Assembly (NCBI GenBank): GCA_002727675.1
Contig: PBXQ01000073.1
Span: 31,272 to 95,271 of the forward strand
DNA from: Thermoplasmata archaeon
GTDB taxonomy: Archaea; Thermoplasmatota; Poseidoniia; Poseidoniales; Thalassarchaeaceae
Reading direction: 5' to 3'
DNA: 64,000 nt
The notes under the pieces are model-generated. The model did no database searches, was not told the DNA's origin, and was given only the letters and a program-made list of their open reading frames with translations. Below are positions 6,001 through 20,691 of the stretch, one piece after another (position 1 is the first letter of the stretch; each line of letters starts with the position of its first letter). Both the position numbers and the translations under genes were made by a program.

Positions 6001-7572
6001 ACGGTCAATATGACTATGGTTAAGGGCGGTACAATGAACATCGCTACAGAATGGGTTGATTTCACCGGAACACCTCATGATTTATCCGAAATCTCAGTCC
6101 CAGGGGCAGAAATAATTGGGAGTACTGAAATTATTGTGTCTCATGAAACAATGTCATGGAATGCAACTGTAGATTCAAATGGCGACCTCAGTATATTATT
6201 GCCTGCTGGTGATGTCAACTTTGAAGGACAATTTGAAACTACTGAACTAGGCATGGTTATGGATTATCGTGCTGGTTTATCCAGCGCAATTGCTTCTCAA
6301 CAGGAATCACCATCTGCTACTTTGAGGTTTAACAGAATACTTGATCATTCTATTAGTTTCGTAGTTTCTTCAGTGGTTGGTGCAAATTTGTCTGAAGATT
6401 CAAATAATAATGTAATAGCCTTATACCATAATGATACAGATTACGAAGTGATTGAATTCACAATTGAACTTGAATATGAGGGTAATGAAGGATATGACGA
6501 ATATACAATTGGCACTGTATTTGATTCAATAGATGTTGATCAATGGTCAATAGAGTTCTTTAATGGAACTGATGCTAATGGTACTGAATTATGGGTTGAA
6601 GAACTCCCTGCAAATCTAGGCTTAAATTCTAATTCATCTGTTACAGTTAGGATGAGGGTTGTAATAGCTAGCATTGCTGGAGCCCAAACGATTGACGATG
6701 GGCACAAGATTAGACTTAGATCAACTCATTCTACCGGTACTTTTAGTGAGTATGTTATTACAGTAAATATTCCTCAGACATTTTCTATTGAGATTATTTC
6801 TAGTCCAGAAAATACGATAGGTGTATTCCCTGGAGAAGAAGAAAAGGTAGAATTTATTATACAAAATACTGGGAATGGCCAAGACATGCTATCTTTCAAC
6901 ATTGACAAGACATGGTTGCCCGAGGGATGGAGTGCTACAGGACCAAGCGAATCTCCATGGGTGAGTGGTGAAGAGAGAGCATATTCATTCACAGTATTTG
7001 CTCCCGAAGGGGCTAATTCTGATACATTTACCTTAGTATTGAATATTAACAGTTCAGATGGCACATCATATGATCCAATTGAGATTGACGTAAAGAGTGC
7101 CAAACCAATACTAAATTTTGTTCAAGATGCTACTGGTACTTTTGATGATGGAAATGCTATTTCAGGAGAAAGTAACAAGATGATAGTTACTGTAGAAAAT
7201 AATGGACTTGTTGATGCACAAAATATTAGAGTAAATGTTAGTATAACAGATAGTAAAGGAAATCATGCTTACATTTTGTCTGATCCTCAAGAAATATCAT
7301 CAGGTAAAACAGCAGAATATATCATGTTTATCGATTTAGATGGAATTGGAATAGGCAAGCAAGAATTCACATTTACTTTGGAAAGTGAATTTGGACTTGA
7401 TTTAGATAGTGGGTCTGATATAGAGCCATATTCAACAATTATCCAAGTTTCTACTCCCCCTATTGATTCAGTTAATGTGTGGGTTCCTCTGATAATTATT
7501 GCAGTATTTATCTTTGGATTCTTTGGATTTAGAAGAATTAAGGAGTCTTTGTCAGCGCAGATGCCTTTCTGA
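1..7572 (+). CDS. aglB: Giant membrane glycoprotein whose N-terminal region is an AglB/STT3-type oligosaccharyltransferase core, followed by about 2200 aa of beta-rich extracellular repeats and a C-terminal TM anchor. It is 5'-partial: the frame is open from nt 1, and the ORF track starts it at an in-frame GTG at 25.
   Basis: Hydrophobic TM helices lie in the first ~300 aa. The WWDYGFQ motif at nt 901-921 (STT3/AglB WWDYG catalytic motif) is followed by TVADNFQSG, resembling the STT3 TLVDNNTWN region. The downstream region is rich in N-x-S/T sequons and CARDB-like xNxGNxx segments. The C-terminal hydrophobic segment VWVPLIIIAVFIFGFFGF is followed by RRIK. The uninterrupted 7.5 kb ORF cannot be chance at this AT content. 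Confidence 0.6.
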   Translation, partial: TFAAGWVAVSFRDKPWLLVLVSGGAIAGVILGALYALQYLEIYNGWDVLTTGGYYFSKNKVFGTIAEAQAPSRAMLFASFGPIVALAALFAGVIAFWQGIRNRNGSRLVLAVWILVAVLMAWRAGRFVFNATPPVAVMGAWAFVIFWQKVGGTEFGKTWRRMGIGSPKARFSSTTKTARKYPGVVAVLMIFMLVGAQHATYGIDSGIPSGNSKAKDIDSSIYNITPSILRAEDPLFGWSILDSTPYNPPSSCRGLTKESSCWYMGAFGPGFNSLYWNEGYQWLEEQDKDVPFGQRPAFVSWWDYGFQALAQGQHPTVADNFQSGIPAAGNMLLAQNDQDLLSLYTMTIAEGDLRYNDGQFTNDFKQILRQQFTNAQIDEFHLLNTLGGDEGVNELQARSFKVTRNAGDVSLAEGYLLDSNGMPTSSIVYRVYQSNEQIGIDYNSEFDAIMMFNQTKDRNDDVNTGSDGFTHQIIGNYWYTKDIVESFDDVSTSIHRQNARLALGRAFLTTALDMDELVELYHGITHDITYTVANSEGNPGDLINRNHDIRYFAVDNRLYPTGGSYQQSGGNPTGIFYAPTTLSGLDPETYMKTWYVTQRGSSSYYIDMTQEEYEEQLEADYLASESQSTEEIIQAVDIRIDQEPEFFDTMVSRAYVGYGSSHLGLPGDPSQPGQHFDLRGTVNSSLQYAFPLPGAMMPNFVIANWYNPDATNETPWYDANTGVKILKYYSGATLTGEVTLGNFTTVPKARLLIERDAYSGEDMFDEDPREYWIPIGTTDADENGHFSFRVPAGHIRVTAFSGFAEDPEVLRNQDRDAIVAAQQDFQEWQEWFGDILGQSDGAREVNPVTSILANVSGGKLLGEIQFTVTGEEADTDGGAVISKSINIESSSATGVVSWEGHSSFDGQALSSHELIFTDIWTEEELPHIWTTNGTVVSDAEHPRVFIGDGEVTFSGAGTMVSNGEVLVSDFTGNYTRTIADNHSFTGEGLYSGIGEFVGTITSNEAISTCVNNSVPEEEEICTIPNSNPTAYLFSGSFNGVGKVTANGTVEYTATLYRETLVGNGIFIVDQSDDSLDSYGTINGSGTFSGVGTFSGDMVQPGSFHLVDALPGSYRVYIVLPNGNITRLSTPLEVDSSPTSDVQLKLPASWIEGDLKWFSGDPISDMALELTELSIDEPATQPCTEVLFAPCILYTDENGSFGYGPIPDGTYNLKMDADGDGFYECVPWQTPASTNFCDGRAEIIATIDPMNFTLIQTSSPVPSHYDLEFTLKQDLGGGTVEPVSDVDVFFHSNLLTDGEYISAIFDNDSSTYKIELPEGEWVVNASDDSGLMLWEEFELLDNMTGMDWILRESVNVTGQILVQTGKSESPQEGVPNLEVKFQWGGITTSVQTSSGMNAGNFSVLLPEGVAVNMTAQSIASQMSNGTSFIVSESNSHIIMNIESGLQLNGGLYLYDNMTAYSPYVPGFMPYQLHAHDDDRDVHWFFDVSVEDGRYSPKLQYGNWTLSITDERLNVDPVQLFVSDENIELMSHFELFANPENITLNITAFLDHSRDGNSSNGTLVDIDFSLTAISGGSDLNVSSSEMNNGNVEVSLHPGVYSFTVENQDVSNGTDFGTSLMNTEYVLELGLDNTTTEFANLSLEPLWKLDGNLENMSGGVIENGTLKFEEMDTGDAFEIITDENGTISDYVPEGQWLVIFERKLVGAEYEELRYNLTVDENSQRSNVTFRTLESAEISLNINISDSGDPLSGLSATATSANGLGEITLPLTNDQGHVLAHLYPGDWIVSLNITHNMDRWVLEGQSLPTASAGQNISENFTVEHHVTLGGNLFWDLDSDDLYDFNEGVEGANVTVSGGGLSEQVNLTSSELGTWSLFVPSNNNYTVEATQIGFGTVSILAEVSTTSNSTDIELIAGNVSINGTIDYIQMQLWDDFSDDVVLTLMPKSGIERDSRTPTKVMALDGTWDGEWVADVEPGSWVLYASVVSEGIVGIVSVEADVHNGTTVNMTMVKGGTMNIATEWVDFTGTPHDLSEISVPGAEIIGSTEIIVSHETMSWNATVDSNGDLSILLPAGDVNFEGQFETTELGMVMDYRAGLSSAIASQQESPSATLRFNRILDHSISFVVSSVVGANLSEDSNNNVIALYHNDTDYEVIEFTIELEYEGNEGYDEYTIGTVFDSIDVDQWSIEFFNGTDANGTELWVEELPANLGLNSNSSVTVRMRVVIASIAGAQTIDDGHKIRLRSTHSTGTFSEYVITVNIPQTFSIEIISSPENTIGVFPGEEEKVEFIIQNTGNGQDMLSFNIDKTWLPEGWSATGPSESPWVSGEERAYSFTVFAPEGANSDTFTLVLNINSSDGTSYDPIEIDVKSAKPILNFVQDATGTFDDGNAISGESNKMIVTVENNGLVDAQNIRVNVSITDSKGNHAYILSDPQEISSGKTAEYIMFIDLDGIGIGKQEFTFTLESEFGLDLDSGSDIEPYSTIIQVSTPPIDSVNVWVPLIIIAVFIFGFFGFRRIKESLSAQMPF

Positions 7573-7648: not shown

Positions 7649-8914
7649 TTGGTGATTCCGGGTCTAGAGGGTGTAGAATTGCTCCCAGAGCCTGAAGATC
7701 CGCGTATGTTGAGTACAATAGACCCGGGTGCAACAGGTTATCCTGCTGAAGCATACGGGATGGATCCAGAAATGGACCCTCAAGCTTGGAAGGGCGCTGA
7801 AGCCATTAATCCAGTTAGGCTAAGGAATAGGTTGCCTTGGGGTGGATGGATATTAGTTTGCTTCATAATTGTAGGAATAATAACATATAGTTCGTTGGTA
7901 GACTATATTGAAGAATTTTTACCTGAATCAGAATGGGCTTATGAAGAATCAGGTATTAGGGATTTGAATGAAGCAGGGTTCAGTGGCAAAGGCGTCAGAG
8001 TTTGCATTGTTGATACCGGCATAGACGTCACACACCCGGATTTGGTTAATACTAATTTAGTCGGTTTCAAAGATTTCGTCCACGATACTCAAGGAAATCC
8101 TCATGATAATGATGTTACCAAATCACATGGCACTATGATGGCTGGAATAATTGTAGCTAATGGTTCATTTATTGGGGCAGCACCTAACATTGAATTGATT
8201 GTGGCTGCTGCTCTTGGTTCTGATGGTAGTTCTGGTTCTGAAGTGTCTGTATCTGAAGCAATAGATTGGTGTTGGATAGAAATGGGTGCAGAAATAATTA
8301 GTTTAAGTTTAGGTGGTAAAACAGATTTAGTTTCCACATATGGTGGTAGTACAGAATCATCAGTTAAGGATGCATTAGATAATGGTGTTTTTGTCGTTGC
8401 GGCAGCGGGTAATCATGGTGGCGCTGGACAAGATTATCCTGACGTTACTATCCCTGCCAATGTTGATGGCGTAATTTCCGTAGGTGCAGCGCATAGAAAT
8501 AATACAGTATGGCAGTTGTCTAGTGCAGGTTCTCCTACTAATTCCTCTGGGGGGATTAGAGAATGGCCAAATCAGAAGCCAGAGGTAATTGCTCCTGGTG
8601 TTGGCATTTACTCGACTTTTGTTTCTGAAAGGACTGGGGCAACTTGGTCCATAAGTGATGGTACTAGTGACGCGACAGTATATGTCACTGCATCTTTGGC
8701 TTTGATATTAGAAAGGTATCAAGGTAATCCTGCTTTGATGCCCACTCATCAAGGGGATAGATCTCCAATTAATCTTGTTAAATCTGCTTTAGCTGAATCG
8801 TGTGAGCCAGGGACATTTCAAAATCAGGGCGAACACCATTTACGTTATGGGTATGGATCATTGAATGCCAAGGATTGGTCTGATGCGGTGGGCGTTAGAA
8901 TAAGTAATGCGTAA
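7649..8914 (+). CDS. Membrane-anchored subtilisin-like serine protease (peptidase S8). The ORF-track start is TTG at 7649; the first in-frame ATG is about 7706.
   Basis: S8 catalytic triad motifs: VCIVDTGID (Asp), HGTMMAGII (His), GTSDATVYV (Ser). An N-terminal cytoplasmic stretch is followed by a TM helix GGWILVCFIIVGIITYSSLV acting as a signal anchor. Confidence 0.8.
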   Translation: MVIPGLEGVELLPEPEDPRMLSTIDPGATGYPAEAYGMDPEMDPQAWKGAEAINPVRLRNRLPWGGWILVCFIIVGIITYSSLVDYIEEFLPESEWAYEESGIRDLNEAGFSGKGVRVCIVDTGIDVTHPDLVNTNLVGFKDFVHDTQGNPHDNDVTKSHGTMMAGIIVANGSFIGAAPNIELIVAAALGSDGSSGSEVSVSEAIDWCWIEMGAEIISLSLGGKTDLVSTYGGSTESSVKDALDNGVFVVAAAGNHGGAGQDYPDVTIPANVDGVISVGAAHRNNTVWQLSSAGSPTNSSGGIREWPNQKPEVIAPGVGIYSTFVSERTGATWSISDGTSDATVYVTASLALILERYQGNPALMPTHQGDRSPINLVKSALAESCEPGTFQNQGEHHLRYGYGSLNAKDWSDAVGVRISNA

Positions 8915-9067: not shown

Positions 9068-12000
9068 ATGATGAAAATGAATGAACGCATGAGCAGTTTT
9101 TTACTTGTCACATTATTTGTGATGAGTTCCATGTCTGTTCTTGTTACTTTTGCCCCAGAGGTTGATGCTGCGAATAATACTACTAGTGGTGTGATTACTG
9201 GGACTGAGACTTGGCAAGGGAGTCATAGTTTGACTGGAGATGTAGAAATTGCGCCAGGAGCTAAATTAATCATTCAGCCTGGTTCAACCATTACATTTCA
9301 AAATGGTACTTTCCTAAATGTAAAAGGCAATTTATGTGCTGGTGATACATCTTGCGGTGCTAGTGGGATGGCAAGTAATTCTAGTAGAATTAAATTTATT
9401 TGGGCAACTCCTGCTAATCAATCAGCCCAGGGTCGCTGCTATTCATTGATTAACCCATCTAGTGGTCAACCATTGTACAACCCTGATCCTTCTTGTTTTG
9501 AAGGCGTATTAGTTCAAGATACAATTGATATCGCTCAAACAAAATTTAACCATGTTACAATTGAGAATGCATATGGGATGCCTCGTTATGTTTCTGATAT
9601 ACAAGAAATTCGTTGGGGTTCATTTATTTTAGATGGTGCTAGCCCATTAGTAACTGAAATTAATTTTAACAATATTAATACCTCTAGTGCATTGATTTTG
9701 GATTTGGCATCTCCTACATTTAATGGAGGTACTTTCCAAGTAGGTTCTGAAGAGGCAATAGAGGGATTAGCCGGTAACGCCGTTCAAGTTTGGGGTGCGG
9801 GTACTCCAAATGACCCTGTTTTGTTCCAAAGTCCCATCTTTACAGGTACTGATAAGGGATGTTCATCCCAGGATAATGGGCGTCACGTAATTTGGGTACA
9901 GTCATCATTTACAGATATTGATCATGGCGTTGTTGCTAGCGGTGATTATGGTTTTAGATATACAGATTCTGCAGGTAATTTATCTTATAACACCATATCT
10001 ACAGATTGTAATGGCATAGACATAAATGGTCGCCGTTCAATGTTATCAACTGATTATCAATTAGAGGTTTTTGGTAACGCAATTACCACTGCCGACAATT
10101 CACCGGTAACTGCTTATGATGCCGCTTATGCACTTATATCATCTAATACGATGTCTGGCGCAGAACAGGCTTCAGGAATTCAGGTGGTGTCAGATCCTTA
10201 TACTGGTCCTACAGAGGTACGAATTACCAATAATGACATAGGGCCAATTACTGGTTATAATGGAATTTGGGGTGTAGGTTCATTTGACATGATGGTGGAT
10301 AACAACACAATTCATGAAATTAATCGTGAGCCGATTATTGTTGGTGAATACCATTACACAGACTCTGGATGGCAGGTGTCTAGTCCGCATCCAGCAAGGG
10401 CTACAATTGTTGATAATGTAATTACTAATGTCACAGGAACTTGTGATTCAGACAAGGTTTGGGGTGAATCATTTGCTTGCCCTGCATTCCATGTTTATCG
10501 TTCTAGTGCAACAATAAAGAGAAATAATGTTTCTGAAATTGCTGGTGATGCTATTCGTGCAGTTGGGTCATTAATTGATGTTCAAGATAATGATTTTTCA
10601 GTAGCTGGCGAAGGAGCTAAAGTTGTTGATCACAAACATGAATATACATCTTTAGCATTCTTTTCAGGAAATAATTGGATTGATGTTGCAGAAATTGTAT
10701 ATAATGTTACTAAGAGTTCTGTAACCGTACAATCAGAGACAATCCCGTCACTATCTGGTGGTGGCGCTATGCCAATCCAATTGGTTTGGGATAGAGGGCA
10801 AGCATATGAGTACAATAATTGGGACAACAAAGTATTGTTGCCTCCAACAACTTCTATGCCTCCTTTAGATTTCCCATTATCACTTCAAGCTGCAAATAAT
10901 TCAACTGTTTTCACCTATGCTAATATGTCAGGTCTTTCACTATCTAAAATTCAGATTGCCCCTGGCTCTCCAAGTATTTGGCAAGTTCAGGTACGTGAGG
11001 CGTCACTTGTTCGCATTAGAGCAACAGTAGGGGGAGTTAGAGTTCCTGATGCTACGATAATGATTGAGGATGCTCACGGTAATGATATTTATAACATGCA
11101 AACTGACTCTCAAGGTTTTGCTCCTTGGGTTGCTCTTCCATCTGATTTCCATTTAGATATCAGAGGGAATGGAAATAACCCTGATGGTTTTGCAGATGAT
11201 GAGGGCGAAAATTCCTGTTCTGATGGTATCGATAATGATGGTGATTTGTTATATGATTCTAATGATCCTGATTGCAATCAAGGTAGTTCTGTTCGTGAAC
11301 TTTCGATGTACTATGTGACTGCTTATAAATTTGGTAAAGGTTATCATAGGTCAACATTTAATTTGACTGGGATTAATTATGAGGATACCCTTTCAATGTC
11401 TAATCTTGCCCCTTCGTTATTGGTTACTCAAGAGGATGGCCATTCATTCAAGAGAACAATAAATTTCACAGGTTATGCTTGGGATGGTAATATTGGTACT
11501 GGGGTATTTTCCAGTGACGAACTTGCACGTTGGTCTCAACAAGGGGCAGTTCAAAGAATTGAAGTCAAAACACCAGACTCTAGTTCTTGGCAGGATTTTA
11601 GGTATGCAGTTGATGATAGTGGTTCAAATGGAGAAGTAACTTACAATAACAGGCCATTTAAAAATTGGTATTTCTCTTACAATATGGAGGATCAACCAGA
11701 GGGTGACTATACATTTGATTTCAGAGCTTATGATGGGGTTGAATACAGCCCAATTGTTACTAGGACAATAAAATTGAACGTTAACCCACCTAGTATTAAT
11801 GTCATTACCCCCGTAAATAATTCTGTTCATTCTACTGGTACGGTGCTATTTACTGGTGGTGCAATGGATGGATATAATGGGGCTATCAATGACATACAAG
11901 AGATTCATTTCCAGATGTCTAGTCCATCTTGGTCTACAACGACTACCACGATTTCCCGTTCTGTAGACAGTCAAGGAAATCCGATTGGAAGTCTAACTTC

Positions 12001-13447
12001 TTGGTCTTGGGAATGGAATTTCTCAGGTATGCCAAAGAATCGTGAGGTGTGGACTTTTACTATTTGGGCTTCCGATTCGGGATATTGTACTGAAACGGTG
12101 GATATCTGTACGCCTGTAACTTTGATGTTGGATATAGATAATGCTAATGCTGCTCCTGTAATTTCACTATTAGCGCCATATAACGATGAAGTAATTACAG
12201 CAGCAGAAGACACCATGATTGCAGGAATTGCACGTGATACCGATGGTGAAGTGAAAAGAGTGGAAATAAAGATATTAGATCCTCAAAATGGGATGATGGA
12301 GTTGCCAAATTCACCTCCTTCGGTTAATAATATAGCTCCTAATGGTCAATGGAGCACAACTTGGGATACGAGATATCTAATCCATGATTTCCATTATTTG
12401 ATTAGCGCACGTTCTTATGATGGTAAATCAGGGGGTTATAGCGCTTGGGATCAAGTAGAGATTATAATTCACAATCCGCCTGATTCAGATAACCGTGCAC
12501 CTATTTTCAATAGTTCTGGTTGGGTAAATGAAGTGATAATTTTCTGTGAAGAGAATAGTGAAGCTTTGGAAAGGTGTGGGAACGGAGGTTCGATTGAAGT
12601 TTCGCCTTATTTCAGTGACCCCGATGGAGACTCACTTGATTTCGATGTTTGGGACGATCCAGATGTAATTGCCAATAGTGATTTTGAGCACGATCAAAGG
12701 TGTTATGATTTAATTTCAGTAGATATTTATGGTAAGGCAACTTATGATCCTGTTTCAATGTCTTTCCTAAATGCTGACATGGACACTTGGTCATGCGAGG
12801 GAATGAAATTCATTGCCAAAGATGGTTCTAGTACTGCTTATAGTATGAATGTAGATTTTATTGTTAGGGCAGTATCATTTACCGCTGAAAGAACCGATGG
12901 AATATCTGAATTAGGTGATGATGAAATAGTAATTTTCTCTGGTCAGGGGAGGCCTGGGATTGAGGTTGTAGCGCGCTCAAGTAATACTGGACTTAGACTG
13001 AATAATACAATTGTTGACGATAATGGTACATGGACAATGGCCATAAAAGTCAAAAATTTGGAGAATGGATTGAATAATATTAATTTTGTTTATGATAAAA
13101 AAGATACTGGCAAGTCAATATCTGTTCAAGTTGGCTCTGTTGATGATGATAGCGGTCTTGGATGGATTTTATGGGCTTTAATTTCAGTAATATCATTAGT
13201 AGTACTTGCCGGGGTATTCTTCTTCTTCTTTGTTGAATTTGAAGAAGAGCCCGATGTGGATTTACCTCAGGGGAGTCAGGTGGTTGAAGAAGACCCATAT
13301 GCATGGGGTAAAACAAATCAGCAACAAGCTACGGCTTCAGCGCCGGCGACCGCCCAACAGGTCGCTCAGCCTGCAGCTGCGCCTCAACCAAGTTATCCTG
13401 GCTGGAAGTGGGATCCAGAAAGTAATCAGTGGATACCTGATCAATGA
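9068..13447 (+). CDS. Giant (1459 aa) secreted surface protein with right-handed parallel beta-helix repeats, Ca-binding-like Asp-rich segments, a C-terminal TM anchor and a Q/A/P/W-rich cytoplasmic tail.
   Basis: Signal peptide MMKMNERMSSFLLVTLFVMSSMSVLVTFAPEVDA. Pectate-lyase-like beta-helix repeats, e.g. NNDIGPITGYNGIWGVGSFDMMVDNNTIHEIN. DGIDNDGDLLYDSNDPDC segment. C-terminal TM WILWALISVISLVVLAGVFFFFFV, then an acidic/Pro tail ending YPGWKWDPESNQWIPDQ. An SD-like aaggtg lies 8 nt upstream of ATG 9068. Confidence 0.7.
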   Translation: MMKMNERMSSFLLVTLFVMSSMSVLVTFAPEVDAANNTTSGVITGTETWQGSHSLTGDVEIAPGAKLIIQPGSTITFQNGTFLNVKGNLCAGDTSCGASGMASNSSRIKFIWATPANQSAQGRCYSLINPSSGQPLYNPDPSCFEGVLVQDTIDIAQTKFNHVTIENAYGMPRYVSDIQEIRWGSFILDGASPLVTEINFNNINTSSALILDLASPTFNGGTFQVGSEEAIEGLAGNAVQVWGAGTPNDPVLFQSPIFTGTDKGCSSQDNGRHVIWVQSSFTDIDHGVVASGDYGFRYTDSAGNLSYNTISTDCNGIDINGRRSMLSTDYQLEVFGNAITTADNSPVTAYDAAYALISSNTMSGAEQASGIQVVSDPYTGPTEVRITNNDIGPITGYNGIWGVGSFDMMVDNNTIHEINREPIIVGEYHYTDSGWQVSSPHPARATIVDNVITNVTGTCDSDKVWGESFACPAFHVYRSSATIKRNNVSEIAGDAIRAVGSLIDVQDNDFSVAGEGAKVVDHKHEYTSLAFFSGNNWIDVAEIVYNVTKSSVTVQSETIPSLSGGGAMPIQLVWDRGQAYEYNNWDNKVLLPPTTSMPPLDFPLSLQAANNSTVFTYANMSGLSLSKIQIAPGSPSIWQVQVREASLVRIRATVGGVRVPDATIMIEDAHGNDIYNMQTDSQGFAPWVALPSDFHLDIRGNGNNPDGFADDEGENSCSDGIDNDGDLLYDSNDPDCNQGSSVRELSMYYVTAYKFGKGYHRSTFNLTGINYEDTLSMSNLAPSLLVTQEDGHSFKRTINFTGYAWDGNIGTGVFSSDELARWSQQGAVQRIEVKTPDSSSWQDFRYAVDDSGSNGEVTYNNRPFKNWYFSYNMEDQPEGDYTFDFRAYDGVEYSPIVTRTIKLNVNPPSINVITPVNNSVHSTGTVLFTGGAMDGYNGAINDIQEIHFQMSSPSWSTTTTTISRSVDSQGNPIGSLTSWSWEWNFSGMPKNREVWTFTIWASDSGYCTETVDICTPVTLMLDIDNANAAPVISLLAPYNDEVITAAEDTMIAGIARDTDGEVKRVEIKILDPQNGMMELPNSPPSVNNIAPNGQWSTTWDTRYLIHDFHYLISARSYDGKSGGYSAWDQVEIIIHNPPDSDNRAPIFNSSGWVNEVIIFCEENSEALERCGNGGSIEVSPYFSDPDGDSLDFDVWDDPDVIANSDFEHDQRCYDLISVDIYGKATYDPVSMSFLNADMDTWSCEGMKFIAKDGSSTAYSMNVDFIVRAVSFTAERTDGISELGDDEIVIFSGQGRPGIEVVARSSNTGLRLNNTIVDDNGTWTMAIKVKNLENGLNNINFVYDKKDTGKSISVQVGSVDDDSGLGWILWALISVISLVVLAGVFFFFFVEFEEEPDVDLPQGSQVVEEDPYAWGKTNQQQATASAPATAQQVAQPAAAPQPSYPGWKWDPESNQWIPDQ

Positions 13448-13508: not shown

Positions 13509-16028
13509 ATGGTAGTTGCTAAACCGGGTGTGCAAGAGAGGATTCTATTGCATCTTAGGGATTATGGGGATTATTCAGGAAAAGTGGAAGTGCCTTTTGC
13601 TTTATCTCAAATGGGGATTGCAAATGCTGTTGCAATAGCTAGGAGTAATGTCCCAAGAGCTATTGCTGGATTGAAAGACCAAGGTTTGTTGATTGAAAGG
13701 CAAACTCATGTTACAGGAGTTACTAGGAAGAGGAAGGCGTATTTCTTGACTGACTCTGGTATGATTGTCTCTGAGGAGACGTGGGAACGACTTTCTAGCC
13801 ATCCTGTTAGATTAATTGGAAATGATGGAAATACCATTAATACAACATTATCCAAAGCAATTGAGACCACTCCGTTTACCATTCGTGCAGTTGACGTCAT
13901 ACGTTACATGGATGATACTGGACTAGTAGACTTACGTTCATTAAATCCCGAATTAATAGAACGTGATTTGTCTAAACATGTAGAAAAGCAACTTGTAACT
14001 TCATTGGAGGATTTGCCTAGATTACGAAGTTTCTATGGCCGAAATAATGAACTAAAGACAATGGTAGATTTACTTAGTGCTCGTTCAACAACGATCCTTG
14101 TTCCGGGTATAGCAGGGATTGGAAAAACTGCCCTTGCTGGAAAATTGATTGAAACCTTTACTCATCAGAGAAATTTATTGTACCATAGAGTGCAAGATTG
14201 GGAGGGTTCTAGGGCCTTTTTAGAGGCATGTGGGGAATGGTTGGCAGCAATAGGTGATGATGCATTGTCAGCATACCTTACTGCTACTCCTGTTCCATCA
14301 GCACAAATGGCAGTTGATTTGATTGTAGATGCATTGGCCGAGGTTGCAGCATTAATTGTGATAGATGATTTACATAAAGTAGCAGATGATGTTCTTTATG
14401 CTGTCATTAGGGGTTTGAATCAACGTATAGATGACATGGATGAAACAGGATTAATTCTCTTCTCTCGTTCATTTAAGGAAGTTGTCCCACTTAGGGATGC
14501 AGAGGGTAAAATCACTACACTAGTAGTCCCTCTTGATGGGTTAGATAGGGAGGCTTGCAGAAATTTATTACCCTCGTTAGATCCAGTTGATGAAGTTACA
14601 TACCAACATATTTACGGCCTTTCTCGTGGACATCCTTTAGTTCTAAATTTAATCAATCGTGGTTCTATTGGTACCACATTTTACGAAACATTGGAAATGT
14701 ATGTTGAGAAAGAAATTTTTAGCAAATTATCAGGTGCTGAAAAGCGTTTATTAGGTGCCTTGGCAGTTTTCCGAGAACCAATGCCTTTGGAGGCGTTAAG
14801 TGGCGATGATTTGGAAACAGATTTGCTAGATGATTTGGTTGAGAAAGGCTTGGCAAGGCAAGCAGATTCTGAGATGTATGATGTTCACGATTTAATTCGA
14901 GAATTCCTTACAAGATCCTTAGATATTGGTACAAATAATGAACTGCATGCTAAAGCAGTTGAGTGGTATAGGACTAGAAGAAATAGACCAGAGGAAAAAA
15001 TTGAGTTTCTTTTCCATCTTTCTCATTCAGGAGATTCAGAAGAACTGGGTGAAAAGTTATCTGTGATGGGTGCAGAATTGGTTCAAGCGGGTCACATGGA
15101 ATTATTTTCCATTCTTGATTCAGTTGAGATGGAATCAGTAGGAGAAAAATCGTGGCCAATTATTCTTGAATTGAAATCAAATATTTTGTCCATGCAGGGG
15201 CGTTGGACTGAGGCCGAAGAGCACTATAACCAAGCTATTAATATGCTTGGATCAACAAAAAAAGAGGAATTGATGAGGGCCAGAATCAAATCAAGTTTAG
15301 CAGATATTTCAGTTACAATTGGCAATGTCGATGATGCTCTAAATTTACATAAGGAGGCATTGAGTTCTTTTATCAAATTGAATGATCCACGTGGTGCTGC
15401 TCGTACTTACAATAACATGGGCTACATTTATCGCAGAAAAAGAGATGAAAAGAGGGCATTGGAAGTATATGCGAATGTGGAAAAATTATTGGATTCAGAA
15501 GATGACCCCGATTTGGTTGAGTCACGAATTAAATTAGCATCAGCATTTTTGGAAATGGGTGAACTAGATCGTGCTAAAGATCACGCTTTTAGTGCCCACG
15601 ATGAAACTTCAGAAGGGGGGGATGCCGTGCTTCATGCTAGGGCGAGGGCAGTCCTTGGACGTTATTATTCTAAAACAGGTGATCCCGAGCTTGCTTTGCA
15701 CCATTATTCCGAGGCCTTGGGGGGTTTATCTGAGCAATCTGATAGTCATGCTGAAGTTGAAATCACTTTATTATTAGGTGAAGTATTAGTTGATAATGGG
15801 CGCAGGGATGAGGCCTTGGAATGTTACCGTGACGCCTTAGTTTTAGCAGAGTCTAATGATTACAGGATGCTAATTGGTGAGTTGCTTGCGAGGTTAGGAG
15901 AAGCAGCACCTGATAAAAGTCGTAGGATGGAATATTTGCAACGTTCATTGACAGTGTTTCGTGAGTTAGGTGCAAATTATAGGATGAGGGATATACAAAC
16001 TAAAGTGCATAGAGCCCTAATGGGTTAA
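13509..16028 (+). CDS. STAND-class P-loop NTPase with N-terminal winged-helix DNA-binding domain and C-terminal TPR repeats. It is a putative ATP-dependent transcriptional regulator or signal-transducing NTPase. The ORF-track start is TTG at 13470; ATG 13509 is preceded by a ggtggtgg SD.
   Basis: N-terminal wHTH-like region LSQMGIANAVAIARSNVPRAIAGLKDQGLLIERQ. Walker A motif ILVPGIAGIGKTALAG. Walker B motif ALIVIDDLH. C-terminal TPR-like repeats (AARTYNNMGYIYRRKRDEKRALEVY; ALHHYSEALG; ALECYRDALVLAE). Confidence 0.7.
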   Translation: MVVAKPGVQERILLHLRDYGDYSGKVEVPFALSQMGIANAVAIARSNVPRAIAGLKDQGLLIERQTHVTGVTRKRKAYFLTDSGMIVSEETWERLSSHPVRLIGNDGNTINTTLSKAIETTPFTIRAVDVIRYMDDTGLVDLRSLNPELIERDLSKHVEKQLVTSLEDLPRLRSFYGRNNELKTMVDLLSARSTTILVPGIAGIGKTALAGKLIETFTHQRNLLYHRVQDWEGSRAFLEACGEWLAAIGDDALSAYLTATPVPSAQMAVDLIVDALAEVAALIVIDDLHKVADDVLYAVIRGLNQRIDDMDETGLILFSRSFKEVVPLRDAEGKITTLVVPLDGLDREACRNLLPSLDPVDEVTYQHIYGLSRGHPLVLNLINRGSIGTTFYETLEMYVEKEIFSKLSGAEKRLLGALAVFREPMPLEALSGDDLETDLLDDLVEKGLARQADSEMYDVHDLIREFLTRSLDIGTNNELHAKAVEWYRTRRNRPEEKIEFLFHLSHSGDSEELGEKLSVMGAELVQAGHMELFSILDSVEMESVGEKSWPIILELKSNILSMQGRWTEAEEHYNQAINMLGSTKKEELMRARIKSSLADISVTIGNVDDALNLHKEALSSFIKLNDPRGAARTYNNMGYIYRRKRDEKRALEVYANVEKLLDSEDDPDLVESRIKLASAFLEMGELDRAKDHAFSAHDETSEGGDAVLHARARAVLGRYYSKTGDPELALHHYSEALGGLSEQSDSHAEVEITLLLGEVLVDNGRRDEALECYRDALVLAESNDYRMLIGELLARLGEAAPDKSRRMEYLQRSLTVFRELGANYRMRDIQTKVHRALMG

Positions 16029-16504
16029 AATCCTGGTTGATTGGTTGTGATTACAACTTTATTATCTTGCATTACTACCCATATTTGTTCTATTCCTGCT
16101 AGTTCTACTTCTCCTGAATGAAATGTATTTCCTGTCGAAGATATGTCTCTAGTTGCTTTTAGGTTAGCACTATGATCTTGCATTATTAGTCCATCATCTG
16201 TCAACAACATTCTGAATTCGAGATTTACTGCATTTGAAAGTAGTAAATCGACTGGTTCAGCGTAGGTGATGTTTCCATCTAATCTGCTAGCAACATCGGC
16301 CCTTTCAATTGCAGCAGCGACAGAGTCTAGGTTTTCTTCCATAGCCTGTTCCATCCAAACATCTCCTCTAGCATCTTGCATTTCCCATGTCCAAACACTG
16401 AAGAATGACATAAAAGATAGCCCAAGTAGGAATGTAAGTACATATCCAATTTCAGTAGCAGCGGCCAACGTATCTCGTTGTAATTTACGATTGATTTTCA
16501 TCAT
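16025..16504 (-). CDS. Small (159 aa) class-III-signal-peptide, type IV pilin-like protein, a putative minor pilin. Start ATGA overlaps the stop of the upstream gene.
   Basis: N-terminus MMKINRKLQRDTLAAATEIGYVLTFLLGLSFMSFFSVWTW: a basic region is followed by a single hydrophobic helix. There is a 4-nt overlap (16501-16504) with the preceding gene, and the stop overlaps the convergent STAND gene stop. Confidence 0.5.
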   Translation of the reverse strand: MMKINRKLQRDTLAAATEIGYVLTFLLGLSFMSFFSVWTWEMQDARGDVWMEQAMEENLDSVAAAIERADVASRLDGNITYAEPVDLLLSNAVNLEFRMLLTDDGLIMQDHSANLKATRDISSTGNTFHSGEVELAGIEQIWVVMQDNKVVITTNQPGF

Positions 16505-18726
16505 ACCACCTCTGTAGAAATTGTTAATTGACTTAATTGAAGGTTGAACAGAACAGGTTTTCCTGCTGCATGGTAAATTGCTTCAGAACTAGAATTTGTT
16601 AATTGAACCCAGCCAACATAGTCTTCTAGTCTTTCTATTTGGCCTGGGAAAGTCAGCCAGTCTGAAGAAAAGGCAAGTTCTTGAGAAGACTCAGAAGCAA
16701 TTGCTGAACCATAAGGTCCATCCCATCCTCTTCGTATTTCATGTCCAAGGACTGTTGCAAGTTGCTCTCTTTGGTTTAATTCTACAGTTAAATCAACTTC
16801 ACTGCTTCCTAAAGATGACCCTTGTTCTGGCATGGTTAGTGGTACGGTTACAGCAAGTCTTGGACCAGGTCCTTCCCTTGCAGGCGGGAGTTTCAGGACA
16901 TCTGCTTGAAATTCTGGATGATTGGTTCCAACAAATCCACCCCGGTATCCGATTTCCATTCCTGAAACAGAACTTGTGAATTCATAATTTAATCTTGGTA
17001 GATGAACTCCCCAAGCAGAAGCCAGTGTGTAAAGCGGATCTCCATTATTTGGTCCCAATGCTTGAATAGATATTCCTAGAGGGTGTGTTCCATCATTCCA
17101 TGCTTCTTTGATTTGAGTATTTGAATGCATAGACATGTCTTTCCAGGGTAAAGTTACTTGAATCCATCCTGAAGCCCTATAGCCTATTGGTTGGCATCTT
17201 TCAAATCCATCGTGGTTTAATTCCATCATTCCATCATTACCGGCAACAGAAATTAATCTAAAGGGTGCATCATTTAGTATATCAGTAGTGTTAACCGAAG
17301 TGCGTACAAGATTTGATGCAATGGGTGAAAGAGTCACAACACGGCTATTTTTTGAATCATTAAATGCTAAGTGTGGTGTTTCATTATGTCCTAAATCTGC
17401 TATTAGGTTTAGAGATGTTTCAGGGCTAGCAGGCTGAATGATTACAAATTCATCGCCATTGGAATTAGGTGTTGAGAATGAATGCTCTAAACCACTTGAC
17501 ATACCACTATCAAGGGCAGGTATCATTTCCATAGAACCTGTTCTAAATGTACCTAACATATTTTCAGGCAACCAATGAATTTGAATTGGGCTGTTTGAAA
17601 CTATTTGGTTTGCTTTATCCCATGGAATTCTAGTTGAATCTCTAGCAGGTATGGTGTTGTAAAGGCCGTCTATTTCAATTGCTACTGAACTACTAGATGG
17701 GTTTTCTACCAGTATGCTTCCATTTGCTGCAGGTAGGGAAAATGTTGTTCCTAACCCCCTGCCGTTAACATCAGGCCAGATTGTAGAGCCTGTGTCTTCA
17801 CCCCAGGTCATCATCAATCTTGCCGGAGAACTAGAATGAACTTGTAACACGTCTCCCAATTCTGTATTGAAATTTTTATTCCATGAAGAAATTTCACCAT
17901 CACTAGTTGCTGTCCCATTTGATGAATTTGATGTCCATGTAACTTGAGTTAAATCATCACTTACAAGAAATAGGCTAACTTTCCCAGGGGGTAAAGGGAT
18001 GGTCCATGATCTTCCCATATTATTATCTGGGTTAGCTAAATCGGGTGTAACCAAAGTGGTCCCGCCGTTTCCTCTCAAAAATATTACTTTAAGCGGGCCA
18101 TCAGATGATAACCAATTATCGCCAATGGAGGGATTATATGTGAAATTAGTGTTTAGGACTTCATCTGGTTTGAGAGTAAATTCAATATCATTTCCTTGAT
18201 TATCCAAATAAATAGAAGTGGAATCCAATGGTTGTTGTAGAGTGGTTACAGGTGTGGCCAATACTGTTCCGTTTATTGCAGGTATACGATAATTCCAAAT
18301 GGCATCTTTACTTGCTCGTAAATCTGAAAAGCAAACAGCCGAAACTTCTCCATTTGGGTATCTTAAACGTACAGTATTATCTAAATCTAGTAAGTCATCT
18401 AATCGCAAACTTCCATCTTCAACAAAGGATACAGAATACCATGTCCCCCCTCGTATAAAATCCCAGCCTAATTCTCCACTATGTGGGCGCAAGGGTAGCG
18501 TAGCCGAATCACCTGGCAACCCAGTTTCAGAAATACGTACTGTTTCGTCTGCTAGATCCAACATTTGGCCAGACATGGCTTGCCTTTCAACAGAGCCATG
18601 TTTTTCATTGATTACAGGAGTAATGGTTACCATCATTCCAGAAATAATTGCAAGTACTCCTGCAAATAATAATACTGTTGCGATTGCTGCTGAGACTGCC
18701 TCCTCATCGTATCTTCTTTGCATCAA
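16501..18726 (-). CDS. 741 aa extracellular beta-rich protein with an archaeal class-III signal peptide, a type IV pilin-like N-terminus. Putative pilus-associated adhesin or major subunit.
   Basis: N-terminus MMQRRYDEEAVSAAIATVLLFAGVLAIISG contains the IATVLL motif typical of archaeal pilin/archaellin N-termini. The remainder is rich in N-x-S/T sequons. There are 4-nt overlaps with the flanking genes at 16501-16504 and 18723-18726. Confidence 0.6.
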   Translation of the reverse strand: MMQRRYDEEAVSAAIATVLLFAGVLAIISGMMVTITPVINEKHGSVERQAMSGQMLDLADETVRISETGLPGDSATLPLRPHSGELGWDFIRGGTWYSVSFVEDGSLRLDDLLDLDNTVRLRYPNGEVSAVCFSDLRASKDAIWNYRIPAINGTVLATPVTTLQQPLDSTSIYLDNQGNDIEFTLKPDEVLNTNFTYNPSIGDNWLSSDGPLKVIFLRGNGGTTLVTPDLANPDNNMGRSWTIPLPPGKVSLFLVSDDLTQVTWTSNSSNGTATSDGEISSWNKNFNTELGDVLQVHSSSPARLMMTWGEDTGSTIWPDVNGRGLGTTFSLPAANGSILVENPSSSSVAIEIDGLYNTIPARDSTRIPWDKANQIVSNSPIQIHWLPENMLGTFRTGSMEMIPALDSGMSSGLEHSFSTPNSNGDEFVIIQPASPETSLNLIADLGHNETPHLAFNDSKNSRVVTLSPIASNLVRTSVNTTDILNDAPFRLISVAGNDGMMELNHDGFERCQPIGYRASGWIQVTLPWKDMSMHSNTQIKEAWNDGTHPLGISIQALGPNNGDPLYTLASAWGVHLPRLNYEFTSSVSGMEIGYRGGFVGTNHPEFQADVLKLPPAREGPGPRLAVTVPLTMPEQGSSLGSSEVDLTVELNQREQLATVLGHEIRRGWDGPYGSAIASESSQELAFSSDWLTFPGQIERLEDYVGWVQLTNSSSEAIYHAAGKPVLFNLQLSQLTISTEVV

Positions 18727-19757
18727 TATACCTCCACAGATTGCAAAGTTACTAGGAAATCAAAAGACTTATTCGGTGGGTGTAGTGTTATTCCATCTAG
18801 CCCGGATAATCTGCCATGTGGGCCAAAATCATTGTATTCATCTAATGCATCACCAGCTAGAAATAATTCGTAATCACCAATCCAATGGTGCATGTACTGA
18901 GGTTCTATTATTGGGTCTCCAGCTATTTCAAATTCAATAATTAGATTTCTAGACATTTGGTCAAACAAGGTTTCTTGGCCCTTTGAGTCAATGTGAATAT
19001 TGGTGATGTGCCTACTAGCAAATGATGAGATATCAATATCTAGTAAAATCAAACTGACTCTAGGAGTCCCATCTAACATTATGTCATTGTGCAAACGCGG
19101 GAATTGTCTAACTTCGATAGATTTGGTGGGTAGTTTTTCAATTCTAGCACCATTGACTAAATTAACCTCAAATGATCCATCGCTTAATACATTGTTTAGC
19201 TTAATTCCATCAAGGGTAACTTCAACAAAACGATGTGATTTAACACCATAAATATCTTCTACCTCAATAAATACATTACCAATTAGATTGTCAACCGTAA
19301 AATTTCCTGAGCCATTTTCAATGTTGAAAGTTTGAGTGCTGTTATCATCAGTTACTCTAACAATACTTGCAGTTCTGTTGATGCTAGTTACTGTGACAAG
19401 GTTTCCATCCAAATTAACAATTGTATGATCATCACCACCAATGTCTGCTTGTATTTTCCAAGTTTCTGCATTTCTCAATGGATCCATTGAACGTGCAATT
19501 TGAGCATTTTGCTGAACTAAACCAGAACCTTCAGGTGATTGGGCTGCTATCAGCATTCTATCATTTAATTGGGTGGCTGCTACTGAGCCAGATGACCATT
19601 CACGGTTGTCTCCAATGTCTTCTATAAATGGTCCAATAAGTACGAAAACCCCGCCAATGACAACAATTACCATTGCTAGTAACATGGTGACCCCGAGAAT
19701 CTCGCTGACCGCGTTTTCTCTGTGGCTACCACTCCGCCGCACATAGCGGACTCCCAC
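18723..19757 (-). CDS. 344 aa class-III-signal-peptide (pilin-like) extracellular protein, first gene of the three-gene operon. It has a GTG start, with an in-frame TAA three codons upstream.
   Basis: N-terminus (M)GVRYVRRSGSHRENAVSEILGVTMLLAMVIVVIGGVFVLIG. It shares the pre-helix motif E-[EN]-A-V-S with the 741 aa protein. An AT-rich promoter-like region lies at 19800-19860. Confidence 0.55.
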   Translation of the reverse strand: MGVRYVRRSGSHRENAVSEILGVTMLLAMVIVVIGGVFVLIGPFIEDIGDNREWSSGSVAATQLNDRMLIAAQSPEGSGLVQQNAQIARSMDPLRNAETWKIQADIGGDDHTIVNLDGNLVTVTSINRTASIVRVTDDNSTQTFNIENGSGNFTVDNLIGNVFIEVEDIYGVKSHRFVEVTLDGIKLNNVLSDGSFEVNLVNGARIEKLPTKSIEVRQFPRLHNDIMLDGTPRVSLILLDIDISSFASRHITNIHIDSKGQETLFDQMSRNLIIEFEIAGDPIIEPQYMHHWIGDYELFLAGDALDEYNDFGPHGRLSGLDGITLHPPNKSFDFLVTLQSVEVY

Positions 19758-19869
19758 CTCATGTTCTTATGGGTTCGCTGTGGTAAACATCGCCGAAGGC
19801 GATACTTCTAGTAAATTGAAAGTCAGCGATGATATAGTAATAATATGTGATTTAGATACTAATTAGATA

Positions 19870-20691
19870 TTATATTATTAATTCTGGCTCTGATTGCCCT
19901 AAGTAATGGGAGAATTCTGGCCCCTCTTTTTTACTTATTGAAATATCTCCACCAAACAAATCATCTATCTCCATTAAAACCTCACTTTCAGCGATGTGTG
20001 GTGCATTATTTTGTTCGGAAAGATGGCTTAATACAATGCTGCGTGTGTGTTTTCCAACTACATTAGATAACAACTCTGCTGTTTGTTTATTTGACAAATG
20101 TCCTCCTCTACCTGCAATACGTTGTTTCAAGGTTTCAGGGTATGGTCCATTCCACAATTTATTGCTATCATAATTTGCTTCAATTGATATATGGACACAT
20201 TCTGACATGTGGCGAATTAATTCATCATTCCATGAACCTAAATCGGTCACTATAGCGGCCCTTTCACCCGCATGGCTAGCTATGAATCCGACATTGTCTG
20301 CACCATCATGATTTACCGAGATTGGTAGTATGCTCAAATCAGAACCAAATTCTATTCTATTTAGTGTTTCAAAAATACGGCATTGGTTTACGGGGTCTAA
20401 CCCCATTCTAGCACATGTTTCGAAGTTTGCTTGGATTTCAGTACCCCATTTTTTGTGGATAATAGGCGCCCCTTTAGCATGGTCTGTGTGGTGATGACTA
20501 ATAAGAATTGAATCAAGGTCATCAGGTGTCATTTCTAGCATGTTCAATCTCTTTTCTAATTGCCTTCCTGAGAAACCACAATCAATCAATACTTTGCTTT
20601 CTCCAGCGACTAAAAGTGTGGCGTTGCCACTACTGCCTGAGCCTAAATGAGTAATTGATAGTGTCATCCGAGCGTCCCGCATCATCGGCAC
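19870..20691 (-). CDS. Metallo-beta-lactamase-fold hydrolase (PhnP/RNase Z-like superfamily).
   Basis: LGSGSSGNATLL glycine-rich N-terminal motif and ISHHHTDH (HxHxDH) zinc-binding motif. It lies upstream of and co-oriented with the pilin-like operon. Confidence 0.75.
   Translation of the reverse strand: MPMMRDARMTLSITHLGSGSSGNATLLVAGESKVLIDCGFSGRQLEKRLNMLEMTPDDLDSILISHHHTDHAKGAPIIHKKWGTEIQANFETCARMGLDPVNQCRIFETLNRIEFGSDLSILPISVNHDGADNVGFIASHAGERAAIVTDLGSWNDELIRHMSECVHISIEANYDSNKLWNGPYPETLKQRIAGRGGHLSNKQTAELLSNVVGKHTRSIVLSHLSEQNNAPHIAESEVLMEIDDLFGGDISISKKEGPEFSHYLGQSEPELII

Follow-up and report, generated by a model that had tools for sequence, protein, structure and literature searches.

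A translationally coupled operon for three pilin-like proteins in a conserved cell-surface gene island of Poseidoniales

Here we describe an operon of three genes for pilin-like surface proteins in a 64,000-nucleotide (nt) stretch from a Thermoplasmata archaeon of the order Poseidoniales (Marine Group II, MGII; assembly GCA_002727675.1, contig PBXQ01000073.1, positions 31,272 to 95,271 of the forward strand), the whole of which is called the window below. We show that these minus-strand genes, named here by the lengths of their products in the map of open reading frames (ORFs; 344, 741 and 159 amino acids (aa), in order of transcription), form a translationally coupled operon. As judged from sequence, the products are three distinct proteins with pilin-type N-termini and a putative cleavage site. 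Together with a gene for a metallo-beta-lactamase (MBL)-fold hydrolase upstream of it and a gene for a STAND NTPase that faces it, the operon is a slice of a cell-surface gene island. As to function we favour, by analogy and with about an even chance of being right, a reading in which the three proteins form an assembly resembling a pilus tip complex that is displayed as an adhesion or recognition device.

The pilin-type character of the proteins is seen at their N-termini, where residues were tabulated in 47-76 loci per family. Each family is nearly invariant in this region: a charged leader is followed by A or G at position -1, then by V-S-A-A (741-aa family), V-S-E-I (344-aa family) or A-T-E-I (159-aa family), and by a hydrophobic stretch of ~20 residues that starts directly after the putative processing site in all three. 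The small residue at -1 is kept without exception (75/75, 47/47 and 76/76 loci for the 741-, 344- and 159-aa families) and positions +1 to +8 are essentially fixed in the loci tabulated. With the arrow marking the putative site, the invariant motifs are [DE][DE]A↓VSAA[IV]ATV for the 741-aa family (75/75 loci), [A/G]↓VSEI[L/M]GVT for the 344-aa family (47/47) and D-x-x-A-A↓A-T-E-[IL]-G-Y for the 159-aa family (76/76). Glu at +3 is thereby invariant in the 344- and 159-aa proteins, and the 741-aa protein, which has Ala at that position, carries no acidic residue there. The pattern that FlaFind looks for, G, A or S at -1 ahead of a hydrophobic domain, was found in all three families. In the 741-aa family the site, [DE]-A↓V-S, has the same pattern as the FlaFind-predicted sites in the PibD substrates of Haloferax volcanii, which read DA↓VS in PilA1/3 and RA↓VS in PilA4-6 (PMC4371748). 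Two motifs picked out in an earlier note on this DNA, E-[EN]-A-V-S and IATVLL, were confirmed and vary hardly at all inside each family. Sequence conservation is highest in the N-terminal 30 residues of all three families, with a column identity of 0.79-0.83 as against 0.54-0.63 elsewhere, and when profiles are compared the 344- and 741-aa families are linked through their N-terminal 39 columns only. Since the similarity is confined to those columns, these are distinct proteins with a pilin-type front end in common.

That all three proteins have pilin-type N-termini had been proposed in the earlier note, and the proposal is supported both by the small residue before the hydrophobic domain and by recurrent weak matches to the Pfam families DUF7289, Pilin_N and DUF7266. 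In the 344-aa family DUF7289 was matched by 21/21 members (best E 3.7e-5), in the 741-aa family by 16/21 (best E 2.2e-5); Pilin_N (PF07790) was matched by 15/21 members of the 344-aa family (best E 0.024). DUF7266 was matched weakly by 2/14 members of the 159-aa family (E 0.0019), and occasional matches to DUF7287 were seen among the members. The window copy of the 344-aa protein scores 17.4 bits against DUF7289 (PF23960; profile positions 2-54 of 238, gathering threshold 27 bits) and 15.9 bits against Pilin_N (E 0.025, below the gathering threshold of 25.2 bits); the 741- and 159-aa proteins of the window gave no match to Pilin_N. We found no paper on the DUF7289 family.

Good-quality AlphaFold2 (AF2) models of the two larger proteins have the lollipop shape of a long N-terminal helix followed by a beta-rich globular domain. 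In the model of the 741-aa protein (predicted local distance difference test (pLDDT) 80.6, predicted template modelling score (pTM) 0.81) a helix at residues 6-68 leads into multiple beta domains of jelly-roll or Ig-like type, and confidence falls at residues 684-710. In that of the 344-aa protein (pLDDT 75.6, pTM 0.71) the helix spans residues 14-73 and a beta body follows; in both models the helix is thus 60-63 residues long and the body is all-beta. Generic Ig-like domains were the only PDB matches of the 344-aa body, the 741-aa protein had no meaningful fold or sequence match in the PDB, and hidden Markov model (HMM) profiles of both families found nothing among PDB sequences. The earlier note had called the bodies rich in N-glycosylation sequons. 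This holds in so far as sequons are about twice as dense in the 741- and 344-aa proteins as in the cytoplasmic proteins of the window, but the counts (9, 5 and 1 in the three proteins) are not above the expectation from their N/S/T-rich composition.

A separate feature of the 741-aa protein is its C-terminal ~150 residues (window positions 16501-17000). Here invariant polar and aromatic residues are densely packed in homologues that are only 36% identical overall, in patterns such as G-F/A-V-G/V-TNHPE, R-x-GPGPR, RRGW..PYG, DW..P and GWV. Such a degree of conservation suggests a site of binding or catalysis, or a fixed interface between proteins.

The coupling of the three genes is visible at their junctions. 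The layout described in the earlier note, a three-gene minus-strand operon with the MBL gene upstream in the same orientation and a convergent STAND gene, was reproduced by the ORF map. Both junctions had been described as 4-nt overlaps, which is correct for the 741/159 junction, where ATGA at 16501-16504 is a genuine overlap. Between the 344- and 741-aa genes (18723-18726) the sequence reads TTGATG, and the overlap is 4 nt if the TTG is the start or 1 nt if the ATG at 18723 is used; from the ATG the protein would have 740 aa, as in the 740-aa homologue P0001. In our set of 85 homologous loci the 344/741 overlap of 4 or 1 nt was kept in 70/71 cases and the 741/159 overlap in 61/66. This indicates that the overlaps are not due to chance and that translational coupling is under selection. 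For the 344-aa gene, alignment of homologues places the likeliest start at the GTG at 19742, which gives a product of 339 aa beginning MRRSGSHRENAVSE, because homologues start at MRR... at this point and a GAGGTG motif lies upstream.

The 741-aa family is confined to, and widespread in, a single order. A scan of GTDB species genomes detected it in 288 of them, and every genome labelled below phylum bears the name Poseidoniales, Thalassarchaeaceae or Poseidoniaceae. An exhaustive profile search with the same family among 1.84 billion representative proteins returned ~12 full-length clusters plus fragments and no distant relatives. Gene order and orientation were identical in 85/85 loci, judged only as far as each contig reaches: an S8 protease gene, a gene for a ~1460-aa protein and the STAND gene on one strand, the 159-, 741-, 344-aa and MBL genes on the other, then a gene for a ~1900-aa protein. 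Longer loci add a ~3200-aa STT3-containing protein beyond the S8 gene and a second large protein of ~1830 aa beyond the 1900-aa gene. Identity to the window copies across homologous loci is 55-91% for STAND, 56-87% for MBL and 30-87% for the pilin-like proteins. The arrangement of STAND, three genes and MBL that the earlier note proposed to survey is thus kept in 85/85 loci. As a unit, on the other hand, the proposed module dissolves, for the conserved block runs on around it for at least 32 kb, from the STT3-containing giant to the two ~1900-aa proteins. Coordinates in the window are given in Table 1.

Table 1. Genes of the operon and of the surrounding island in the window
Feature	Position	Strand	Basis
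S8 subtilase	7649-8914	+	Pfam Peptidase_S8
1459-aa surface protein, Sec-secreted, C-terminally anchored	9068-13447	+	Pfam Big_7
STAND protein	13509-16028 (alternative TTG start 13470)	+	ORF map
159-aa gene, third of operon, small pilin-like protein	16025-16504	-	ORF map
741-aa gene, second of operon, large pilin-like protein	16501-18726	-	ORF map
344-aa gene, first of operon, pilin-like protein	18723-19757 (longest ORF)	-	ORF map
MBL-fold hydrolase gene	19870-20691	-	ORF map
Giant secreted protein, 1914 aa	20836-26580	+	ORF
Giant secreted protein, 1838 aa	26685-32201	+	ORF

The reading that we favour would begin with the coupled operon, which would supply roughly equal amounts of three type-IV-pilin-like surface proteins. 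These would join through their N-terminal helices into a stoichiometric hetero-oligomer resembling a tip of minor pilins, with the 741-aa subunit in the distal position, since it is the one that has no invariant Glu at +3, above the 344- and 159-aa subunits. In the GspI-J-K tip complex of type II secretion it is likewise the largest, distal subunit, GspK, that lacks the conserved Glu. The conserved coupling of the genes and the pattern of Glu at +3 lend such a heteromer indirect support only. About 1100 residues of beta-rich ectodomain would be displayed on MGII cells for adhesion or recognition, and a peptidase and assembly proteins for any leader cleavage or polymerisation would have to be supplied from elsewhere in the genome. 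The closest parallels in organisation are the minor (pseudo)pilin sets GspI-GspJ-GspK of bacterial type II secretion, FimU-PilVWX of bacterial type IV pili and EpdA/B/C/D of Methanococcus maripaludis, which also comprise several pilin-like proteins of graded size encoded by consecutive, overlapping genes. The largest subunit in these sets has lost the acidic residue that the others conserve near the mature N-terminus, and a role as a complex of set stoichiometry, rather than as the bulk subunit of a filament, is plausible for the Poseidoniales proteins as well. The likeness is one of gene organisation and motif pattern only, and Foldseek and HMM searches against the PDB revealed no homology to Gsp, Pil or Epd proteins in either sequence or fold. 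The Poseidoniales genes also differ from the minor-pilin sets in not being encoded with an ATPase, platform protein or peptidase, and their acidic residue is at +3, whereas that of bacterial minor pilins is at +5.

Several observations weigh against this reading. Archaeal prepilin peptidases are said to depend critically on a charged residue at -2 (PMC4371748), and such a charge is found in the 741-aa family (E or D in 67/75 loci), partly in the 344-aa family (R, K or D in 33/47 loci, with N in the window copy) and not in the 159-aa family, where -2 is A or G, never charged, and the nearest conserved charge is the D at -5. None of the Pfam matches of the three families reaches the gathering threshold, and all cover the N-terminal ~55 residues only. 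The ectodomains are unlike any solved pilin, with Foldseek and HMM searches against the PDB returning generic Ig-like or jelly-roll domains only. Synteny across the loci is so uniform that there is no signal of differential co-occurrence. Finally, cleavage and filament assembly may be absent in most carriers, because FlaK and the archaellum ATPase and platform are rare in the MGIIb lineage, where the motifs are nevertheless conserved.

This last point depends on the distribution of the machinery. We detected no pilus ATPase, platform protein or A24 peptidase in the 64-kb window, ORFs without Pfam hits included; a hidden A24 peptidase or platform protein among these Pfam-less ORFs would have to be a polytopic membrane protein, and no suitable one is present. 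Nor was an assembly ATPase (T2SSE), platform protein (T2SSF) or peptidase found in the 10-kb flanks of homologous loci. The earlier note's statement that no such component is encoded nearby is therefore confirmed for the entire window, and its description of the operon as a self-contained cassette has to be dropped, as a type IV filament requires peptidase, ATPase and platform and none is here. Archaeal pilin genes are as a norm located outside the operons for type IV pilus machinery (PMC4858521), and missing local machinery is therefore not unusual, nor is the locus self-contained. At the level of whole lineages, the archaellum operon has been reported in all genera of Poseidoniaceae and only half of those of Thalassarchaeaceae (Rinke et al., PMC6461757), FlaHIJ only in MGIIa and three MGIIb subclades (Tully, PMC6336850), and FlaK was annotated in 83/92 MGIIa metagenome-assembled genomes (MAGs) as against 26/158 from MGIIb (PMC6336850 supplement). 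MGIIb-like loci, of which the window is one, nonetheless keep all three genes, and the putative cleavage motifs are conserved in full. Either a peptidase and assembly system has gone unrecognised in MGIIb, or the three proteins work without one. In the Red Sea, the gene for a canonical DUF1628 pilin ranks with those that MGII transcribes most (PMC5069720); the supplements of Rinke et al. and of the Red Sea study hold no entry on a prepilin peptidase or a DUF1628 gene.

The second of these options leads to the strongest alternative, which we consider possible at a clearly lower probability than the tip-like assembly. The three proteins could be uncleaved signal anchors of type II topology that form a permanently membrane-anchored envelope complex independent of any filament machinery, organising or anchoring the MGII glycoprotein coat, with the pilin-like helix serving only as a membrane anchor and element of oligomerisation. 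The presence of the cluster in every examined locus, MGIIb-like ones included, despite the sparse annotation of FlaK and the restricted occurrence of FlaHIJ in that lineage, is in line with such a role, as are the inconsistent charge at -2 in the 344- and 159-aa families, the size of the 344- and 741-aa proteins, which is large for pilins, and the position of the genes within an island encoding an oligosaccharyltransferase, a protease and giant surface proteins. Translational coupling would suit a complex of fixed stoichiometry. However, plain signal anchors would not be expected to keep a small residue at -1 and a Glu at +3 inside the hydrophobic segment, the absence of an A24 peptidase from MAGs derives from KEGG annotation of incomplete genomes, and the highly expressed canonical DUF1628 pilin implies that pilin biology exists in MGII.

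A more specific and more doubtful proposal is that the operon encodes a core envelope component of Poseidoniales. The three proteins would be a pilin-derived, fixed, membrane-anchored stub that uses no filament machinery and anchors or organises the coat of giant glycoproteins encoded around it. Prepilin-like helices would have been reused with their Glu pattern included, and the stub would have persisted in the streamlined MGIIb after loss of the peptidase, ATPase and platform.

The earlier note had gone further and proposed a self-contained appendage or adhesion cassette of three pilins and MBL under the control of the facing STAND protein, which we regard as improbable. A point in favour of this proposal is the identity of the STAND protein itself. 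Residues 167-494 match P. horikoshii PH0952 (PDB 6MFV) with an E value of 4e-24, scores of 31.1 bits (cut-off 32.6) and 29.6 bits (cut-off 27) were obtained for AAA_16 and AAA_22, and the tetratricopeptide repeat (TPR) families TPR_12 (E 7e-22) and TPR_MalT (E 6e-14) were matched. PH0952 is predicted to be a transcription factor and comprises an ArsR-like domain at the N-terminus, a nucleotide-binding oligomerisation domain (NOD) and a TPR sensor (PMC6468293). Residues 24-79 of the window protein, at the position of that ArsR-like domain, gave a weak match to HTH_Crp_2 (E 1.3e-4, 22.3 bits, cut-off 27). The two proteins are thus alike in an aligned NOD, a C-terminal TPR sensor and a predicted N-terminal winged-helix DNA-binding domain, both being predicted signal-activated transcription factors, and differ in that the N-terminal domain of the window protein matches HTH_Crp_2 only weakly and below the cut-off. 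By these comparisons the STAND protein is a PH0952-type predicted transcription factor. The winged helix-turn-helix (wHTH)-NOD-TPR architecture given in the earlier note is upheld by the PH0952- and MalT-type matches of the NOD and TPR regions and, more weakly, by HTH_Crp_2 for the wHTH.

Control of the operon by this protein would also agree with its gene abutting the operon in every locus, with stop codons that overlap or lie within ~15 nt of each other in most. However, the STAND gene is co-directional with the gene for the 1459-aa protein and lies 22-61 nt downstream of it. It may therefore belong to the transcription unit of that gene, and its facing position says nothing specific about regulation of the operon. 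The whole block of at least 22 kb is invariant, which makes adjacency uninformative, convergent 3' ends do not bring the regulator close to the promoter of the operon, and no filament could arise from these genes alone, given the lack of ATPase, platform and peptidase in the window and the 10-kb flanks. STAND and MBL are conserved neighbours whose functional link to the three genes is putative.

The junction between the STAND gene and the operon has a feature of its own. In the window the stop codons of the STAND and 159-aa genes overlap at 16025-16028, and such an overlap of these convergent genes was seen in 26/79 homologous loci, with the stops 0-15 nt apart in most of the others. As this leaves no room for a terminator, the transcripts probably overlap at their 3' ends as antisense RNA.

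The MBL protein has the HHHTDH motif, scores 56.2 bits against Lactamase_B_2 (E 4.5e-15, above the cut-off) and 48.5 bits against Lactamase_B, and has no signal peptide. It is, on these predictions, a cytoplasmic MBL-fold hydrolase. No subfamily could be assigned from searches that gave 14.6 bits for Apyc1 (cut-off 50) and partial matches only to RNase Z and aCPSF1. The spacer between the MBL and 344-aa genes has a median length of ~60 nt across loci and is 112-127 nt long and AT-rich in the window, and co-transcription of MBL with the three genes is possible. This spacer contains a small perfect hairpin, ATCGCC-TTC-GGCGAT followed by GTTT, at 19790-19815 on the minus strand; as a whole the spacer folds no better than shuffled sequence (z = -0.9). 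A single 491-aa protein, P0155, had the appearance of a fusion of MBL with the 344-aa protein, but in the alignment the portion from MBL is scrambled and translation runs on through the spacer. It is most likely an artefact of frameshift or read-through in an error-prone contig (197 kb, from ENA) and is unfit as Rosetta-stone evidence for a functional link between the two.

Two further explanations are weaker still. Membership of the MGII archaellum, as stator-like (FlaF/FlaG-type) components or as minor archaellins, is suggested by the pilin/archaellin-like N-termini and by the archaellum operons present in MGIIa genomes. We nonetheless consider it very unlikely, as the cluster occurs in MGIIa-like and MGIIb-like loci alike while the archaellum operon is missing from most MGIIb lineages, no locus shows linkage to fla/arl genes, and Pfam scans taken to E values of 0.1-1 matched neither archaellin nor FlaF/G families. 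An anti-virus defence module with STAND as sensor, MBL as nuclease effector and the membrane proteins as further parts, the STAND portion of which the earlier note had held open as a defence-type NTPase, is hardly credible: STAND and MBL do pair in some defence systems, Avs1a (an MBL) is a weak NCBIfam match and PADLOC returned PDC-S27 at 22.7 bits and RTasMBL at 21.5 bits, but all defence matches are weak and partial (in PADLOC, at most 32 bits over TPR or P-loop segments, and no match at all for the three pilin-like proteins), the N-terminus of STAND is a predicted DNA-binding wHTH and its NOD matches PH0952, and both genes are fixed in position and 55-91% identical in every examined locus across the order, whereas defence islands are typically patchy.

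With respect to archaeal pilins in general, the proteins resemble H. volcanii PilA1-6 and the haloarchaeal DUF7289, DUF7266 and DUF7287 proteins in a leader that is charged, in V-S preceded by A or G at -1, and in the conserved hydrophobic domain. They resemble PilA1-6 also in that the genes are located away from the pilB/pilC machinery, and archaeal pilin-like proteins more broadly in the long N-terminal helix and beta-sandwich body of the modelled 741- and 344-aa proteins. The differences are that the matches to Pilin_N- and DUF7289-type families are below threshold and short, that the Poseidoniales bodies (~100, ~280 and ~680 residues) have no detectable homologue outside the order, and that haloarchaeal PilA proteins have Pro where the Poseidoniales proteins have Glu at +3. 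Moreover, pilA1-6 encode interchangeable paralogues of a major pilin and not three unlike proteins in a fixed tri-cistronic operon, and the Poseidoniales set is conserved in lineages reported to be without FlaK and FlaI/J. We therefore place the proteins, from their sequences, in the broad class of pilin-like surface proteins of archaea, as new members specific to the order, and assign them to no named family because Pfam membership fails at threshold and cleavage is putative.

The genes around the operon are in keeping with an envelope island. Every locus of sufficient length contains the S8 and 1459-aa genes, in unchanged order and orientation. Neither of the two giant secreted proteins on the other side has a Pfam match; the 1914-aa protein contains 17 DxDxDG calcium-binding motifs of thrombospondin type 3-like character and has a homologue in all loci that reach that far, and the second giant gene was seen in loci L001-L004. 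Rinke et al. noted "thrombospondin" adhesion genes, and that for the 1914-aa protein is probably one of them. At the start of the window an ORF on the plus strand (25-7572) runs off the edge with 2515 aa visible, including a CarboxypepD_reg domain and a C-terminal transmembrane (TM) anchor. It corresponds to the ~3200-aa protein that in homologous loci carries an STT3 (AglB oligosaccharyltransferase) domain (L002-L004, 21118-22310). Such a fusion of an oligosaccharyltransferase to a giant extracellular region is unusual, and it stands at the head of the conserved island. Elsewhere in the window, a 365-aa ORF at 33186-34283 (+) combines pyroglutamyl peptidase (Peptidase_C15) and NUDIX hydrolase domains, an uncommon fusion. 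Three large minus-strand ORFs at 38066-40276 (736 aa), 43646-45742 (698 aa) and 48941-51238 (765 aa) have signal-like N-terminal segments, C-terminal TM segments and no Pfam match, and are probably more lineage-specific surface proteins. An Rfam scan of the window returned no match.

No member of Marine Group II, one of the most abundant groups of planktonic archaea, has ever been cultured, and the envelope and attachment structures of these archaea are known from gene lists only, such as those of archaella, "thrombospondin" and flotillin genes. The operon adds to these lists three conserved, previously unannotated pilin-like proteins amid a conserved island of envelope genes. The persistence of the three proteins in lineages reported to be without the archaellum and FlaK makes them good candidates for a basic structure on the surface of cells throughout the order. 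For annotation, "hypothetical proteins" can become pilin-like surface proteins and the STAND protein a PH0952-type regulator. Archaeal genomes carry dozens of pilin-like proteins, and in that light the finding is otherwise unsurprising; what stands out, as a concrete and testable oddity, is that the three proteins do not follow the distribution of FlaK and FlaI/J. The operon thus provides a concrete test case for whether pilin-type proteins can function without a filament machine.

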